A DNA stretch of 64,000 bases from Escherichia coli O157:H7 (GTDB taxonomy: Bacteria; Pseudomonadota; Gammaproteobacteria; Enterobacterales; Enterobacteriaceae), in the NCBI RefSeq assembly GCF_013167455.1, contig NZ_CP038328.1. The stretch is one strand, 5' to 3'. This document shows positions 366 to 63,451 of the stretch, one piece after another; within the stretch, counting starts at the first letter, position 1, and each line of letters begins with the position of its first letter. Position numbers and translations under genes: made by a program. The notes beneath the pieces are model-generated. The model was given only the letters and a program-made list of their open reading frames with translations, was not told the origin of the DNA and searched no databases.

Positions 366-1682
366 ATGAATGACGGTGTTATGCTAGATTCTGACGTTAT
401 TGCTGGTCTTGAGTGGTTAGCATCAACTCAAGAGAACAAACAACACTTTTACCAGCGCTTAGCAAAAGCACAGCAATTTTACATAGCTACAACCCAAAAA
501 GCTGCCAATTTCGGGAAACAGTTTGACCCAGAATGGTATGGTTCCGACGTGGTTGCTGGTTATTTCGCACAAGCAAAATCGCTTATCGATAATAGAAGGT
601 CTTACGAAGTTACTAATGCTTCAAATATAATACCATGGGTTAAACAATTAGGAGTGTGTGCTAAATCGCTCGATAGAATTACTGGCGCTAGAGATCGCGC
701 AATCAGAATGCTTAAGAATACAACAGTATTACCAGACACAGCCTTATTAGAGTTGGTTCTTGCTGGAAACTATGCATCAGAAGGTTATGAAGTTGAGTTC
801 ATTCCAGAACAAAAAGGGATAGCAAAAACCCCGGAGTTTCGTTGCCGCCTTGGAGATGGCGATTATTTCTTTGTCGAATGCAAAAGGCTTCAGAAAGGTC
901 CTTACGTAAAGCAGGAAATATTACAGCATCATATACGCTCACATCTTGCCGAACTTCATATCAAATCCAAAAAGATGAACGTATGGACTGATGTCACATA
1001 TTTATGTGAAGTTAAAGACGCGCCTGAAAACTATATCATTAGCCACTTAAAAAACTTTAAAGGTGTATTTTATGAATGGAATGATGATTATGGAAAAGGA
1101 ACGATTAGACCGGCCAACTTAAATCTTATCAGGGAAGATATCACTGAAAACGGCTCATTACTAGTCAACACTAAACTTGCTCGTCTTATCAAAGGCTCCC
1201 CTCTGGAAGATGAAAATTACCAAGTTGTTGCTATGGGACGACCAGATGAGCGCGACTCACGTTTCATAACCAAAGTTAAACTTGCTTCTTTGATAACATG
1301 GCGTTGTATCAATGAAAAATCTTTCGATGCACGTTCGCGACATGTAACAAAAACATTAGCAGAGATAGATAACCAGCTTTTGGATTATGGTCTAGGCGTA
1401 GGGCATATAGCTTTGGATGTAGATATTCAAAAGGATGTTGCCGATAAACGAAGGGAAAAAAACTATGCTGCCATAGTAAATTTTGAGCAAAAATCTAAAA
1501 TAGTCCGCCTGAATGTTCATTATCTCGTGCCACGCATAGATGAGAACTCTGCGTGGATGGTAGATGAAACTGCGGATGACTTTTTTACCCATGATCTGGT
1601 CAAATATGTTATCCCATTGACTAAAATATTCCCCGAGGCTGAGGTATTTGAGAATGACCAACCTGGCTGGCATCAAAATTAA
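366..1682 (+). CDS. Hypothetical 438-aa protein; possible PD-(D/E)xK-like nuclease motif (E142/E144 ... D164/D166 ... E171-x-K173)
   Basis: Long ORF with ATG at 366 preceded by AAGGAA RBS-like sequence; motif GYEVEF...GDGDYFFVECK read directly from the translation; family assignment not possible without HMM search. Confidence 0.6.
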   Translation: MNDGVMLDSDVIAGLEWLASTQENKQHFYQRLAKAQQFYIATTQKAANFGKQFDPEWYGSDVVAGYFAQAKSLIDNRRSYEVTNASNIIPWVKQLGVCAKSLDRITGARDRAIRMLKNTTVLPDTALLELVLAGNYASEGYEVEFIPEQKGIAKTPEFRCRLGDGDYFFVECKRLQKGPYVKQEILQHHIRSHLAELHIKSKKMNVWTDVTYLCEVKDAPENYIISHLKNFKGVFYEWNDDYGKGTIRPANLNLIREDITENGSLLVNTKLARLIKGSPLEDENYQVVAMGRPDERDSRFITKVKLASLITWRCINEKSFDARSRHVTKTLAEIDNQLLDYGLGVGHIALDVDIQKDVADKRREKNYAAIVNFEQKSKIVRLNVHYLVPRIDENSAWMVDETADDFFTHDLVKYVIPLTKIFPEAEVFENDQPGWHQN

Positions 1683-5127: not shown

Positions 5128-6018
5128 TCAGGCTGCCAGATCATCGTTTCCGATGGAAGCATAATAAGCTTTTTCTGCTTCTGCCGGAGGAGTATGGCCC
5201 AGCCTTCCCAGCAATCGTCGATTGTTATACCAGTCCACCCACGTTAGTGTGGCCAGTTCCACTTCTGCACGGTTTTTCCAGCTCTTACGGTGTATTACCT
5301 CCGCTTTGTAAAGACCATTGATGCTCTCAGCCATCGCGTTGTCATACGAGTCGCCTGTACTCCCTGTTGATGCCAGTAATCCGGCTTCTTTTAGTCGCTC
5401 CGTATAGGCCAGTGACACATACTGAGAGCCTTTATCGCTGTGATGGATGGTGCCAGACGGACGACGGGCCCACAACGCCTGCTCCAGCGCATCCAGCACG
5501 AATGTCGTTTCCATAGACGATGAGACCCGCCACCCCACGATGTATCCGGCAAACACATCAATGATAAACGCCACATAGACGAAGCCCTGCCATGTGCTGA
5601 CGTAAGTAAAATCAGCCACCCACAGCTGGTCAGGTCGTTCTGCCACGAACTGACGGTTTACGCGGTCGCCTGCGGCAACGGCTTTCCGGCTGATGGTCGT
5701 ACGGACCTTTTTACCCCGGAGAACACCGGCAAGTCCCATAACCGCCATGAGACGTGCCACTGTACATCTGGCCACCCTGATTCCTTCCCGTAACAACTGA
5801 CGCCAGACTTTACGCACACCGTACACCTGATGATTTTCATCGTATACGCGCTGTATCTCTCTCTTCAGCCAGTCGTCGTGCTGCGCACGGGCACTGCGTT
5901 TATCCGGATGATGTCGCTGTTGCTGACAATGGTAATACGTTGACGGGGCAATATGCAGTTCGCTGCATACCGGTCCGACCCCGTACTGCTCACGCAGCTT
6001 ATCCAGCAGTGGCATCAT
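5128..6018 (-). CDS. IS3-family transposase OrfB (integrase/DDE catalytic domain)
   Basis: 296-aa ORF with DDE-transposase features (..WVADFTYV.. / ..HSDKGSQY.. / ..DNAMAES..), overlapping OrfA in the -1 frame. Confidence 0.85.
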
Positions 6019-19173: not shown

Positions 19174-20397
19174 TTACAGAAATGGTAAAGAAGGCATAAT
19201 TCCCCGTGAAATACTGGCTAAGAAGCCTTTATCTGGTTGTTCTTCTTTATTGATTAAAGGAAGGTCATCCAAATCGCCCAGCAAATACGTATTTTTTGCC
19301 TGCCAGTCAATCATCCATATTTTCAGCAGTGGATAAGCCAGACCGCCCGTAATCCCGGATATCACCACCAACGCACACATGCGATAAAGCATACCGTGGT
19401 ATGTTAAAGTTGAGCGAAAACGAATACGCCCATCATTCAGTGACAGGTTGCTCATAAAATGATTTCGCAACGACACCGTTAAATAACTGGTGCTAACAGC
19501 AATCCCAAAATAATAGATTAACTGCGCGATTATCATTTTACGTTGCATTTCCATAAATTGCTGTAAATTCTCAATATCATCATTTGCATACACAGAACTA
19601 TCATACGCATTTAATATTTGATCGAAGATAATATAACCAGCAACAGCGAGAAAAGGTAATAAAGCTAAAAATGCGAGGATGGCATATTTTATACAATACG
19701 CAGTATCTAATTTCACCTTGAAACGATGTATACCGAAACTGGTATTGCTCCAGAGAAAACTCATTACCAGGCTATATAAAGTACCATTAAAAATACCAAT
19801 GGAAACAATACCAACTATTGCCATCAGAACCACAGATACAATAACACTACTTGAACTATTGGCATGTAGCATCTTTGTCGAGATAAAGAAAACAGTCCCC
19901 ATCCCAATGGCCATTAAAATCGGCAAGAAAAAGGTTACCCACCAGACCCCTTTCATAGAGCAATTAAAACTAAATCTTACGCCGTTGAGACTGGTCATCA
20001 AGGCCTGATAACGCAGTCCTTTTGCTGCCATAAATATAAGCAAAACCAACAGTGACAAAGTCAAAACACAGCCAATAAGCGGCATATCTGCTGACACTGT
20101 CATTAAGATTGCGAAATAGAAAAAAACAAAAACAAGACAACTAAAAAAAACATTCCCACCAGTAATTCCATAAGAAAATCGTTGTCCGTTAACTTCCATA
20201 TTAGCATAGAGATAACGCTTACATTTCATTAATGCCCATGGTAAATAGATACCTAGCGTTATAATCGTTAACAACACATTCACCACACAAATAAGAAAAT
20301 ATCTCTCACCTGTACCATGAAAAACAAACGAATGGGACGGAACATCCATTTCATTAATAACTTGAGCCATAAAAATTCCCTGAATTAAAAAATCCAT
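19174..20397 (-). CDS. yjgN: DUF898-family inner-membrane protein YjgN
   Basis: Multi-pass hydrophobic translation with LTIITLGIYLPWA motif; start may be the internal Met 9 codons downstream. Confidence 0.75.
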   Translation of the reverse strand: MDFLIQGIFMAQVINEMDVPSHSFVFHGTGERYFLICVVNVLLTIITLGIYLPWALMKCKRYLYANMEVNGQRFSYGITGGNVFFSCLVFVFFYFAILMTVSADMPLIGCVLTLSLLVLLIFMAAKGLRYQALMTSLNGVRFSFNCSMKGVWWVTFFLPILMAIGMGTVFFISTKMLHANSSSSVIVSVVLMAIVGIVSIGIFNGTLYSLVMSFLWSNTSFGIHRFKVKLDTAYCIKYAILAFLALLPFLAVAGYIIFDQILNAYDSSVYANDDIENLQQFMEMQRKMIIAQLIYYFGIAVSTSYLTVSLRNHFMSNLSLNDGRIRFRSTLTYHGMLYRMCALVVISGITGGLAYPLLKIWMIDWQAKNTYLLGDLDDLPLINKEEQPDKGFLASISRGIMPSLPFL

Positions 20398-58784: not shown

Positions 58785-60128
58785 ATGTTAAACAGTATTT
58801 TAGTCATACTCTGCTTGATCGCTGTAAGTGCGTTCTTCTCGATGTCTGAGATCTCACTTGCCGCCTCACGCAAAATCAAACTTAAACTGCTGGCTGATGA
58901 AGGCAATATAAATGCCCAACGCGTTCTGAATATGCAGGAAAATCCCGGCATGTTCTTTACCGTGGTCCAAATCGGTCTGAACGCAGTGGCGATTCTCGGC
59001 GGTATCGTCGGTGATGCGGCATTTTCTCCAGCTTTTCACAGCCTGTTCTCCCGCTATATGTCGGCAGAGCTCTCTGAGCAACTGAGCTTTATTCTCTCTT
59101 TCTCGTTAGTGACTGGCATGTTTATCCTGTTTGCGGATTTAACCCCGAAACGCATCGGTATGATTGCGCCAGAAGCTGTGGCTTTGCGTATCATCAACCC
59201 GATGCGCTTCTGCCTGTACGTTTGCACCCCGCTGGTGTGGTTCTTCAACGGCCTGGCGAACATAATCTTCCGTATTTTCAAACTGCCAATGGTACGTAAA
59301 GATGACATCACTTCTGATGACATCTACGCGGTAGTGGAAGCCGGTGCGCTGGCGGGCGTGTTACGTAAACAGGAACACGAGCTGATTGAAAACGTCTTTG
59401 AGCTGGAATCCCGTACCGTTCCGTCTTCAATGACACCGCGTGAAAACGTGATTTGGTTTGATCTCCACGAAGATGAGCAAAGTCTGAAAAATAAGGTGGC
59501 GGAACATCCGCACTCTAAGTTCCTCGTCTGTAATGAAGATATTGACCACATCATCGGCTATGTCGATTCTAAAGACCTGCTGAACCGCGTGCTGGCTAAC
59601 CAAAGCCTGGCACTGAACAGCGGCGTACAAATTCGCAACACGCTGATTGTGCCGGATACGTTAACCCTTTCAGAGGCGTTGGAAAGTTTTAAAACCGCAG
59701 GAGAAGACTTCGCGGTGATCATGAACGAGTACGCGCTGGTAGTGGGGATCATCACCCTCAACGACGTGATGACCACGCTGATGGGCGATCTGGTCGGTCA
59801 GGGACTGGAAGAGCAGATTGTCGCCCGTGATGAGAACTCATGGCTGATTGACGGCGGCACTCCGATTGACGACGTCATGCGCGTGCTGGATATTGACGAG
59901 TTCCCGCAGTCGGGCAACTACGAAACCATCGGCGGCTTTATGATGTTTATGCTGCGTAAGATCCCGAAACGCACCGATTCGGTGAAATTCGCCGGCTACA
60001 AATTTGAAGTGGTGGATATCGATAACTACCGCATCGACCAGCTGCTGGTGACCCGGATCGACAGCAAGGCCACAGCCCTTTCGCCAAAACTGCCTGACGC
60101 TAAAGATAAAGAAGAAAGCGTCGCGTAA
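58785..60128 (+). CDS. ytfL: CNNM/CorC-family inner-membrane protein YtfL (DUF21 + CBS + CorC_HlyC)
   Basis: 447-aa translation with N-terminal membrane domain and C-terminal CBS-pair region. Confidence 0.85.
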   Translation: MLNSILVILCLIAVSAFFSMSEISLAASRKIKLKLLADEGNINAQRVLNMQENPGMFFTVVQIGLNAVAILGGIVGDAAFSPAFHSLFSRYMSAELSEQLSFILSFSLVTGMFILFADLTPKRIGMIAPEAVALRIINPMRFCLYVCTPLVWFFNGLANIIFRIFKLPMVRKDDITSDDIYAVVEAGALAGVLRKQEHELIENVFELESRTVPSSMTPRENVIWFDLHEDEQSLKNKVAEHPHSKFLVCNEDIDHIIGYVDSKDLLNRVLANQSLALNSGVQIRNTLIVPDTLTLSEALESFKTAGEDFAVIMNEYALVVGIITLNDVMTTLMGDLVGQGLEEQIVARDENSWLIDGGTPIDDVMRVLDIDEFPQSGNYETIGGFMMFMLRKIPKRTDSVKFAGYKFEVVDIDNYRIDQLLVTRIDSKATALSPKLPDAKDKEESVA

Positions 60129-60144
60129 CCCCCATAAACATCAA

Positions 60145-60165
60145 CGGCTCCTGAATCAGGAGCCG
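60145..60165. terminator. Hairpin terminator between convergent ytfL and ytfK
   Basis: CGGCTCCTGA-ATC-AGGAGCCG perfect hairpin. Confidence 0.5.
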
Positions 60166-60170
60166 TCTTA

Positions 60171-60221
60171 TTACTGCATAGCACTTTTTACTGCATAGCA
60201 CTTTTTACTGCATAGCACTTT
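60171..60221. repeat. Three perfect tandem copies of a 17-bp unit (TTACTGCATAGCACTTT)
   Basis: Counted base by base; located immediately 3' of ytfK and of the ytfL terminator hairpin. Confidence 0.85.
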
Positions 60222-60754: not shown

Positions 60755-61309
60755 ATGACCCTACGCAAGATTCTGGCACTCACCTGCCTGCTGTTGCCGA
60801 TGATGGCTTCCGCACATCAGTTCGAAACCGGTCAGCGAGTGCCGCCGATTGGCATTACCGATCGGGGCGAGTTGGTGCTTGATAAAGATCAGTTTAGCTA
60901 CAAAACCTGGAACAGCGCGCAGTTAGTGGGAAAAGTGCGAGTACTGCAACATATTGCTGGTCGCACCTCTGCAAAAGAGAAAAACGCGACGCTGATTGAA
61001 GCGATTAAATCAGCGAAGTTACCGCACGATCGTTACCAGACCACCACCATTGTTAACACCGACGACGCGATTCCGGGTTCCGGCATGTTTGTGCGCAGCA
61101 GTCTGGAGAGTAATAAAAAGCTTTATCCCTGGTCGCAGTTTATTGTCGATAGCAATGGCGTCGCGCGCGGTGCCTGGCAGCTGGATGAAGAAAGTTCCGC
61201 TGTAGTGGTGCTGGATAAAGACGGTCGCGTGCAATGGGCCAAAGACGGGGCGCTCACTCAGGAAGAGGTGCAGCAAGTGATGGACCTGCTGCAAAAGTTG
61301 CTCAAATAA
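60755..61309 (+). CDS. ytfJ: Periplasmic protein YtfJ
   Basis: 184-aa translation with signal peptide. Confidence 0.8.
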   Translation: MTLRKILALTCLLLPMMASAHQFETGQRVPPIGITDRGELVLDKDQFSYKTWNSAQLVGKVRVLQHIAGRTSAKEKNATLIEAIKSAKLPHDRYQTTTIVNTDDAIPGSGMFVRSSLESNKKLYPWSQFIVDSNGVARGAWQLDEESSAVVVLDKDGRVQWAKDGALTQEEVQQVMDLLQKLLK

Positions 61310-61371
61310 TGGCAATAACATAAATTCTGCAAAAATAATTTTCCCCTATCGTTATCTATGGGATAGGGGAA

Positions 61372-62310
61372 TTAAGTCTCTGAGTTCTTACGCCGAACTA
61401 ATACTGGTAACGCTAGTTGCTCTTTTTTAAACGCCTCAATGGTCGATTTATATTTCTCGCAAATCTTTTCTTTGGTAATATCACTATCTGCGGCCAGATT
61501 CGCACTTACTATCGCATCCACTTGTTCGGCTAATTCGACTTGTTGGCAACCCGCATTAACCAGAAAATTATAAATAAGAGAGTAATCTTCATCCTCCAAG
61601 ACAACAGAGGAACCATTACGAAAACGTTCATCCCCTCCATAGATTTTAAGCGCAAAGCCCAAAGATTCTATGACTATGGCAAAATTATCATCAATTATTT
61701 TTTCGTAAATATACCATCCATCGCACTGTTTAATTCCACCTCCTGGCCCTTGTAGTTCAAATTTACCCCGTTTTAATTTGCTTACTATATCATCCAATAA
61801 AGCATAACCTAAAGACACGTCACCAATCGCCTGGTGAATATAACCTTTAATCCTTTTCGGTATGTCAGACTGTTTTTTCTGCAGAATATCCCAGGCATAC
61901 AATCGTCTGTTTTGTTCTAACGGAAATTCACGGTTCTTGAAATCCATGAATGAGTTATACTCATTTATTGTTATGGGGATTTCTTCGTATTCAAATCCAC
62001 TGCCTCGCAATGTCATTGTATATTCGGCACCGTTATCTTTAAGGCTGAAACTGATAAGAAACTTATCCATAGCGTTAACAGTTTCATTTTTTGATGAAAG
62101 CACCTGATAACTACTTTTATCAATCTGAGTTGCGCAACGAAAGAACTCCCTCAAAGTTAACAGGCTATCATAATTCGAAATCCAATCTTTTTTCTTAAAT
62201 GCATGATGGATGTTGTTAAAAAAATTGTTTGAATGTGTTTTTGTATACGAAGACTTTACAAATAACTCCACCGCACCAATAAAATTATTGTGTCTGATCC
62301 TGGGTAACAT
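61372..62310 (-). CDS. ytfI: Uncharacterised AT-rich protein YtfI
   Basis: 312-aa ORF, visibly AT-rich compared with neighbours; position between ytfJ and cysQ. Confidence 0.7.
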   Translation of the reverse strand: MLPRIRHNNFIGAVELFVKSSYTKTHSNNFFNNIHHAFKKKDWISNYDSLLTLREFFRCATQIDKSSYQVLSSKNETVNAMDKFLISFSLKDNGAEYTMTLRGSGFEYEEIPITINEYNSFMDFKNREFPLEQNRRLYAWDILQKKQSDIPKRIKGYIHQAIGDVSLGYALLDDIVSKLKRGKFELQGPGGGIKQCDGWYIYEKIIDDNFAIVIESLGFALKIYGGDERFRNGSSVVLEDEDYSLIYNFLVNAGCQQVELAEQVDAIVSANLAADSDITKEKICEKYKSTIEAFKKEQLALPVLVRRKNSET

Positions 62311-62521
62311 ATGACAACCTTATTTTATTTGGTTACTTTATATCGCCATTAAATATCTCACTATAGAAGTAAACTATCAAAAAACGCTCATTATTAAAAT
62401 GTAACTTATTAGCAATTGAATTTTTGCACTTTAAATACAATCTCTTTTTATTTATAACTTTTTAGGTTGGGAGAAATCAGGATGGCAGAATCAGGAAATA
62501 CACTGTTTCTGCCATCTGAAT

Positions 62522-63262
62522 TTAGTAAATAGACACTCTGAACCCCGGATTCAGGAACGACTCGCGCGGAGTGTAATCCAGCGGTTTACCCTGCCAGTCG
62601 TGAACGTGCGCTCCGGCAGCTGCAGCCACAGCATGTCCAGCGGCGGTGTCCCAAATATTCGTTGGTCCGAAACGCGGGTACAGCTGCGCCTGTCCTTCCG
62701 CCACCAGGCAGAACTTCAGCGAAGAGCCGATGGACGTGGTCTGATGTTCGCCAAGCTGTTGCAGATACTCTTTCAGCTCCGCATCCGCATGAGAGCGGCT
62801 GATCACCACCAGCGGCGGGCGCGCATCGCGGACCTGAATCTGCTTGCGCACGCCGCACTCTTCTTTCCAGGCCTTGCCTTCTGCCGCGCTGTACATTACG
62901 TTCATTACCGGCGCATACACCACACCTAAAATCGGTTTGCCATGGTCAATGAGCGCAATGTTAACGGTGAATTCGCCATTACGTTTAATAAACTCTTTCG
63001 TACCATCCAGCGGGTCTACCAGCCAGTAACGCTGCCAGTGCTGACGGACTTCCCAACCGGGAGGATCTTCTTCAGAAAGGACCGGAATATCCGGTGTCAG
63101 CGTACGTAAACCGTCCATGATAACGGTGTGAGCGGCAATATCCGCTGCCGTTACCGGAGAATTGTCCGCTTTGCTGACGACGTCCATCGGTTTCGCCCCG
63201 TCGTAGACCTGCATAATGGCATCGCCTGCATTCCGTGCAAGCTGGCATACTTGATCTAACAT
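62522..63262 (-). CDS. cysQ: 3'(2'),5'-bisphosphate nucleotidase
   Basis: 246-aa inositol-monophosphatase-family translation (DPLDGT motif). Confidence 0.9.
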
Positions 63263-63451
63263 TTCTCCACCTCGTCTCTGTGAGCGGTGTTAACTTATTG
63301 TTTTACTTATACCCTATCATTAATGAATGCGCCAACTGTGATAGTGTCATCATTTTCAAAGCGTAAAATTGTGGCATTCTTCACTGTTCTATAAGTAAGA
63401 CGTTTATTCTCCCTTTTCTTTCGTATTCCCGATGATAAAAGGATGTCCCTG

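Follow-up and report, generated by a model that had tools for sequence, protein, structure and literature searches.

ytfI of Escherichia coli: probably the single gene of an old AT-rich islet set between the stop codons of ytfJ and cysQ

How does a gene far richer in AT than its neighbours come to lie between two core genes, and what becomes of it there? The question is raised by ytfI of Escherichia coli O157:H7, which is found within a 64 000-nucleotide stretch of contig NZ_CP038328.1 (the window) and is flanked by ytfJ and cysQ. An original prediction, made from the letters of the window, described ytfI as an AT-rich orphan embedded in the core genome, an ancient horizontal acquisition that is probably silenced by H-NS. 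Here, we focus on the origin, age and fate of this gene. We consider it probable that ytfI is the only gene of a foreign islet of 1.22 kb and 35% GC, situated at the stop codons of ytfJ and cysQ, coated by H-NS, and both conserved and dispensable.

The gene is an open reading frame (ORF) of 312 codons that runs from ATG to stop on the minus strand and spans exactly 61372-62310; its product has a calculated mass of 35.9 kDa and a pI of 6.3. Its neighbours are ytfJ on the plus strand (60755-61309) and cysQ on the minus strand (62522-63262). Over the 1351 bases that surround it, nucleotide identity is 100% to E. coli O157:H7 and 98% to K-12, and the matching gene is annotated in O157:H7 as 'ytfI: protein YtfI' with the same two neighbours, which identifies it as ytfI. 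Its GC content is 0.365 (0.438, 0.313 and 0.345 at first, second and third codon positions: GC1, GC2 and GC3), against 0.526 for ytfJ (GC3 0.605) and 0.557 for cysQ (GC3 0.603), and is the second lowest among the 42 long ORFs of the window. Relative to the 41 others, ordinary z-scores are -3.0 for GC and -2.5 for GC3, while scores based on the median and the median absolute deviation reach -5.9 and -6.0; synonymous codon choice departs from that of the GC-normal genes in the window with a z of -2.6. Along the DNA, the 300-nucleotide GC profile falls from about 0.50-0.52 to 0.31-0.40 (at about 61350-62550) and then rises to 0.61. The predicted AT-richness relative to cysQ and ytfJ is thus borne out with a robust z close to -6, and in GC and codon usage the gene is clearly distinguishable from its neighbours. 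Low-GC genes are not rare in the window, since four of the 42 long ORFs have a GC content below 0.40. The other long ORFs of this kind (GC 0.32-0.40), also lying amid GC-normal genes, are at 366-1682 (plus strand), 19174-20397 (minus) and 22751-24505 (minus), and the one of 584 residues among them is probably the yjgL to which the original prediction had likened ytfI; none of these AT-rich ORFs resembles YtfI in sequence.

The origin of ytfI becomes clearer when the same junction is compared between genomes. In 3795 of 5426 complete E. coli genomes (70%), ytfJ and cysQ stand tail to tail and their stop codons overlap by 11 bp; ytfI DNA is present in 1621 (30%), and about ten genomes are in neither state. 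Among 80 species-representative loci of the Enterobacteriaceae, 72 have coding ends no more than 30 bp apart and three more have them 68-81 bp apart. These compact loci include Citrobacter, Salmonella, Klebsiella, Enterobacter, Kluyvera and four other Escherichia lineages, and it is because of the 72 that we take the compact junction to be ancestral. As it is found both in outgroups and in most E. coli, ytfI must be carried on an inserted segment of 1.2 kb, and this insertion, together with the low GC, upholds the proposal of horizontal acquisition. What the original prediction called embedding in the core genome is half right: core genes lie on either side, but ytfI itself is accessory and often a pseudogene.

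The inserted island can be delimited at 61306-62525 (1220 bp, approx. 35% GC; GC is 0.349 over 61300-62521), where it splits the overlapping stop codons. In alignment with the ancestral junction (...TTG CTC AAT AAA TAG...), the filled allele shares CTCAA on the left (61301-61305) and TAAATAGACAC on the right, from 62526. Both reading frames were rebuilt by the insertion: YtfJ ends in QKLLK* where it formerly ended in HKLLNK*, and the SIY* end of CysQ is retained. The empty site has a history of its own. The compact junction of E. coli (L001:1540-1565; also Escherichia sp. MOD1-EC7003) reads AAATTAATTAATAAATAG, while in other Escherichia species (loci L010, L012, L013 and L016, at 5540-5565) and in outgroups it reads AAGTTGCTCAATAAATAG; the difference means that the empty-site haplotype itself gained AT, changing the end of YtfJ from ...KLLNK to ...KLINK.

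Within the island, ytfI is the sole ORF above about 80 residues, and signals for its expression surround it. Between the stop codons of ytfJ and ytfI, at 61341-61371, there is a hairpin of the form TTCCCCTATC-N11-GATAGGGGAA (inverted repeat I13, 10/10 complementary), with a GC stem and an RNA fold of -23.4 kcal/mol (z -3.6), and allele groups B and C retain it. The U-run AAUUAUUUUU comes after it on the ytfI strand, and the hairpin can therefore be read as the intrinsic terminator of ytfI; it also faces ytfJ on the other strand and is probably a bidirectional terminator that serves both genes. Upstream of ytfI is a conserved leader of 211 bp and 28% GC (62311-62521, minus strand). It contains a Shine-Dalgarno-like AAGG at 62318-62321 (minus), 7 nt before the ATG, which is AAGG or GAGG across allele groups with an invariant AGG core, and a candidate sigma-70-like promoter at 62352-62380 (minus), TTGATA-17 nt-GATATT with an extended -10 TG. 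The promoter came from a consensus scan that yields no more sites than shuffled sequence; it sits in the most conserved block of the leader in allele groups A, B and C. Directly after the cysQ stop is a stable stem-loop at 62474-62523 (minus strand; inverted repeat I1; core GATGGCAGAA...TTCTGCCATC at 62481-62516), with an RNA fold of -22.1 kcal/mol (z -4.1), which is invariant across all allele groups and present once in the window. It lies almost wholly within the island, its two outermost bases belonging to the cysQ stop codon, and is a probable new terminator or insulator for cysQ. A hairpin after cysQ, a leader with a candidate promoter, ytfI and a terminator together make a complete single-gene transcription unit. 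No Rfam family matches within the island. Two further elements lie just outside it. A conserved hairpin, CTGAATCCGGGGTTCAG, at 62538-62554 (minus strand) within the 3' end of cysQ falls just past the ytfJ stop in the compact arrangement and could be the ancestral terminator of ytfJ; the intergenic region between cysQ and cpdB (63329-63451, minus) has a full-length Rfam match to the small RNA ES239 (157 bits, E 6e-32).

How long has the island been at this site? Three allele classes of ytfI exist, all at the one locus: class A (O157, K-12 and a 303-residue variant), with at least 89% identity; class B (307 residues), 77% identical; and class C (304-306 residues), 69% identical. Synonymous divergence (dS) between the classes is 0.36-0.85. 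Class C is also present at locus L011, from an Escherichia species that is separate in GTDB and whose flanks are 95.5% identical to E. whittamii and 89.7% identical to the window. Between E. coli and L011, dS is 0.67-0.70 for ytfI, 0.66 for cysQ and 0.56-0.59 for ytfJ (0.67, 0.66 and 0.56 for the window allele). Because the synonymous divergence of ytfI in this non-coli lineage matches that of the native flanks, the insertion appears ancient, as had been suggested: a 69%-identical allele occupies the same site and has diverged as far as its surroundings. The simplest reading of these alignments is that the island already occupied the site before the E. coli and L011 lineages parted, or else passed from one to the other in the remote past.

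Recombination has since acted on the surroundings. Between the window and a class B strain, divergence starts from a background of 1-2.5% and climbs through 8.5% (3' half of cysQ) and 12% (leader) to 16-22% (3' half of ytfI), before it falls sharply to about 2% at ytfJ; such a stepped peak is the pattern of an old haplotype in which recombination has homogenised the flanks. Filled and empty haplotypes within E. coli have otherwise similar flanks, and an identical CysQ protein (WP_000886909.1) is found beside both, which indicates that the state of the site switches between close relatives by recombination. A separate variable stretch lies at about 60000-60200 (3' end of paeA and the paeA-ytfK intergenic region), where strains otherwise 98-99% identical differ at 17-42 positions per 150-200 nt; a variable intergenic repeat or an indel is the probable cause.

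Selection on the island is evident at both the protein and the leader. For pairs of ytfI alleles the ratio of non-synonymous to synonymous divergence (dN/dS) is 0.12-0.38, against 0.01-0.05 in cysQ and 0.02-0.12 in ytfJ, and dN is approximately 20 times that of cysQ. The two halves of the gene differ: dN/dS is 0.13-0.23 in codons 1-145 (0.13 between the window and L090; about 0.2 between allele classes), whereas codons 146-312 give 0.40-0.67. In windows of 50 codons pN/pS never rises above 1, the maximum being 0.98 at codons 151-200. When allele groups are compared, nucleotide identity is 83-88% in the leader and 77-83% in the coding sequence; the leader differs by 12-17%, against 29-45% at synonymous sites (pS 0.29-0.45). 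The reading frame, start codon, AGG core and candidate promoter are retained in all three allele classes, and the low dN/dS together with the conserved leader, start and AGG shows selection on YtfI and on its regulation. In terms of sequence, ytfI codes for a protein under constraint: purifying selection acts on it, the C-terminal half evolves faster, and expression of the gene is likely to be regulated, given the conserved leader and candidate promoter. GC3 stays at 0.30-0.35 in every allele: although synonymous change is close to saturation, composition has not moved towards that of the host. The mutational equilibrium of E. coli is AT-biased. The persistent low GC3 fits either a rarely expressed gene at that equilibrium or selection for H-NS binding.

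The islet has two features of xenogeneically silenced DNA: its GC is low relative to the flanks, and it is a patchy insertion with an ancestral empty site. Binding data exist for K-12. Higashi et al. (2016, PLoS Genet; PMC4720273) use the ytfI locus to illustrate a strain-specific inserted segment when they compare three strains. According to the legend of S10 Fig, chromatin affinity precipitation sequencing (ChAP-seq) places H-NS on the ytfI insertion in K-12, from where it spreads to cpdB, cysQ, ytfJ and ytfK; strains SE11 and SE15, which lack ytfI, have no such binding in the data described there. Binding in K-12 thus depends on the insertion. The prediction that ytfI is probably H-NS silenced stands as far as binding is concerned, which is distinct from silencing measured directly. 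H-NS may keep ytfI essentially off in laboratory conditions. An early sigma-32 peak at ytfI, from chromatin immunoprecipitation on microarrays (ChIP-chip), was not reproduced in a re-investigation and is cited there as a false-positive region.

These observations can be assembled into one account. While the genus Escherichia was still young, a foreign islet would have entered the ytfJ/cysQ junction where the two stop codons overlap. It would have been self-contained, bringing a hairpin that re-terminates cysQ, an AT-rich leader with a promoter, ytfI, and an intrinsic terminator that ytfJ could share. Its AT-richness would have led to coating by the xenogeneic silencer H-NS and left ytfI mostly off. 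The gene would then have persisted in E. coli as a presence/absence polymorphism, present in about 30% of genomes and replaced by the compact junction in 70%, with three deep allele classes.

What does YtfI do? In a word-indexed search of 5.8 billion proteins, every relative comes from Escherichia or Shigella and is either a protein with an identity of 69% or more or a fragment. When 1.84 billion representatives were scanned exhaustively with phmmer, the accepted relatives were likewise just Escherichia/Shigella YtfI alleles and fragments; the one outside match (P0036, E 5.5e-4) is a repeat surface protein of 1100 residues that matches through a short repeated motif, and was rejected as a chance hit. 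Phage genomes and IMG/VR hold no relative of ytfI. Four matches labelled as plasmids are chromosome-sized, being non-mobilizable records of 0.66-4.9 Mb, and were not accepted as plasmid carriage. Over the approximately 7.6 billion proteins covered, the distribution is therefore restricted to Escherichia/Shigella and, within E. coli, to 30% of genomes; the backgrounds include O157:H7/O55:H7, K-12, O145 and many others.

Neither a signal peptide nor a membrane segment is visible in YtfI by eye, and the 35.9-kDa protein is predicted to be soluble. Pfam gives no match except LisH at E 0.79, and NCBIfam none. PADLOC and PHROGs return weak matches alone (Cas6b at 18 bits; phrog_3250, a family of unknown function, at E 0.0015), which cover one conserved stretch and were judged insufficient. 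A profile search of PDB sequences yields nitrogenase at E 1.2 alone, and hhalign of the two halves finds no internal duplication (probability 0.2%). AlphaFold models are of low confidence; they point to a helical/beta module at the N-terminus and a long helix, followed at the C-terminus by a sheet of five strands with helices, and fold searches with these poor models found nothing. The description of YtfI as an orphan with no recognisable domains and no known function agrees with these searches. As for experiments, over-expression of ytfI from the ASKA collection placed it among 23 clones that tolerate 3 mM sodium hypochlorite (NaOCl; PMC8228696), and YtfI is also a proteome-chip match for lactoferricin B, which is non-specific. 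The literature on ytfI otherwise consists of gene lists, and b4215 as a query returned no relevant papers. Our best guess, by inference only, is that YtfI is a conditionally expressed accessory factor of a niche or conflict type and not a housekeeping enzyme.

Conflict is the most attractive specific guess because of the conserved N-terminal and variable C-terminal halves, the polymorphism and the location at an insertion hot spot. Where ytfJ and cysQ meet, the same few bases are occupied by unrelated cargo in E. coli, E. albertii, Citrobacter youngae and Kluyvera, and each cargo has rewritten the last codons of ytfJ. In E. albertii NBRC 107761 (L015:5556-7059) the cargo is an AT-rich gene for a pentapeptide-repeat protein of 385 residues (PF00805, E 7.6e-12), with which YtfI has no homology. 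In C. youngae ATCC 29220 (L043:5559-7678) it is a membrane protein of 298 residues with a Cys/Gly/Ser-rich tail beside a radical S-adenosylmethionine (radical-SAM)/SPASM enzyme, which looks like a pair of the kind that makes ribosomally synthesized and post-translationally modified peptides (RiPPs). In Kluyvera (L067:5556-6462 and L070) it is a gene resembling S11 D-Ala-D-Ala carboxypeptidases.

On this basis ytfI could be a novel single-gene conflict system, directed against phages, plasmids or other bacteria, whose polymorphism is maintained by balancing or diversifying selection, with the conserved half as effector and the variable half as sensor. The accessory state, the recurrently used insertion point and three alleles differing down to 69% identity at one locus would suit such a role, as would a dN/dS two to three times higher in the C-terminal half, a divergence peak on ytfI between homogenised flanks, the conserved promoter and an islet that is AT-rich and bound by H-NS. 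Many defence islets are AT-rich and H-NS-bound. However, YtfI belongs to no anti-phage system in PADLOC-DB v2, in which Cas6b (18 bits over 40 residues) is the only family matched, and its neighbours are housekeeping genes. Neither Pfam nor NCBIfam reveals a motif of the nuclease, ATPase, TIR, SIR2 or transmembrane type; dN/dS exceeds 1 in none of the codon windows, pseudogenes are frequent and there is no partner gene. K-12 carries ytfI, yet the retrieved papers that mention the gene report no phage phenotype. We regard a conflict system as unlikely. A more specific version, in which YtfI is a new Escherichia-restricted conflict family held as a trans-species polymorphism by balancing selection at the overlapping-stop site, with H-NS as its off-switch, we think improbable.

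A second alternative makes the protein irrelevant: the ORF would be a decaying relic, or spurious within AT-rich junk, and the DNA alone would matter as an H-NS-bound spacer or terminator module. Decay is certainly common. Besides frameshifted copies there are copies disrupted by the insertion sequence (IS) IS1, as in strain AST81, and in strain XJ5.2 IS1 has removed all of ytfI except the first 63 nt; an N-terminally truncated YtfI of 251 residues forms a protein cluster of 729 members. Of 60 ytfI-positive genomes sampled at even spacing, about ten appear to have a disrupted copy: eight were so judged from a match length of 938 bp (one of them checked against the annotation) and two from annotated IS1 insertions. 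The island is thus a target of IS elements (L004:6967-7421 and L005:4146-5126; L092:2620-3317; H87), and class C ytfI has a DDE_Tnp_1/DUF772 transposase gene directly on its downstream side. Since ytfI is lacking in 70% of genomes and is frameshifted, IS1-disrupted or truncated in others, it is dispensable, and the relic reading draws further on the dearth of homologues and domains and on the low-confidence structural models. Against it, the frame is intact in three classes at a dS of 0.36-0.85, with dN/dS between these intact frames of 0.22-0.38 and lower values, from 0.13 to about 0.2, in the N-terminal half; start codon, AGG core and promoter are conserved as well. A relic is thus very unlikely.

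A third alternative is that the insertion is recent and specific to a strain or lineage, and has spread by recent transfer. It takes support from the term strain-specific inserted segment, used of the locus in the three-strain comparison (PMC4720273), and from the identical CysQ beside empty and filled sites. It conflicts with the dS of up to 0.85 between allele classes, with the co-divergence of ytfI and its native flanks in a non-coli lineage, and with the breadth of backgrounds given above. The ends of ytfJ point in the same direction: the filled allele retains the ancestral GTTGCTCAA, whereas empty sites in E. coli have the derived AAATTAATTAAT, and therefore neither state is a recent derivative of the other. 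We hold a recent insertion to be highly improbable. Finally, that YtfI is a highly diverged Cas6-like RNA endonuclease is scarcely credible: all six alleles match the PADLOC Cas6b profile (E ~3e-4, residues 112-152), and GPGGGIKQCDGW at residues 189-199 loosely resembles the glycine-rich G-x-G-x5-G loop that is a motif of Cas6, but Pfam and NCBIfam Cas6 models, PDB sequences and fold comparison lend no support. The joint marks of a Cas6 endoribonuclease (a profile match over both RRM-like domains, a ferredoxin-like fold and an adjacent CRISPR-cas locus) are not present together, and the identification was rejected.

The account of an ancient, H-NS-coated islet must itself be set against several observations that count against it. 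The island has no transposase or integrase, its boundaries have no terminal repeats and the junctions no clear target-site duplication, so that the island is not recognisable as an IS, an integrative element or a prophage remnant. The protein searches found no donor or relative beyond Escherichia, and for this reason the horizontal origin depends on composition and on the insertion relative to outgroups. The argument for age assumes similar synonymous rates in ytfI and its flanks, and an old transfer between Escherichia lineages would yield a similar dS. L010 and L012, the sisters of L011, have the compact junction, such that a single ancient insertion requires a long-lived polymorphism or recombinational replacement. 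The H-NS evidence is of binding, and it comes from K-12, whereas the window has the O157-type allele. As to function, the guess at a niche or conflict role has no direct support, and hypochlorite tolerance is weak, non-specific evidence.

Comparison with known systems places ytfI among the acquired genes bound by H-NS. Like those described in PMC4720273, it is AT-rich and patchy, with binding that is centred on the insertion and spreads to neighbours, and its dN is above that of flanking core genes not bound by H-NS. It differs in its leader: the upstream regions of H-NS-bound genes tend, according to that paper, to diverge faster, whereas the ytfI leader is better conserved than the coding sequence and far better than synonymous sites. 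Like other orphan y-genes of K-12, such as yjgL, it lacks domains, is low in GC, has no characterised function and is confined to the genus, but it is accessory and not fixed in the species. The ytfJ/cysQ junction resembles the integration hot spots for defence and accessory islets that lie between core genes in Enterobacteriaceae, in that one site takes up unrelated cargo; unlike them, it has no integrase, tRNA, attachment-site repeat or mobile-element boundary, and consists of a convergent overlap of stop codons. The likeness to Cas6b (PADLOC PDLC02103), a weak match over 40 residues in all YtfI alleles, is treated as spurious.

That ytfI exists, that it is an orphan and that it lies on an inserted segment bound by H-NS was known already. 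What the present analysis adds is incremental: the exact anatomy of an insertion at overlapping stop codons; evidence that this insertion is ancient, having diverged along with its flanks, and not specific to K-12; purifying selection on YtfI, which hence is not junk, and on its leader; and the use of the overlapping ytfJ/cysQ stops as a recurrent entry point for unrelated cargo across the Enterobacteriaceae. Alone, the finding matters little. For work on the function of y-genes, ytfI is a tractable subject, as natural knock-outs, strains with an empty site and three allele classes already exist.

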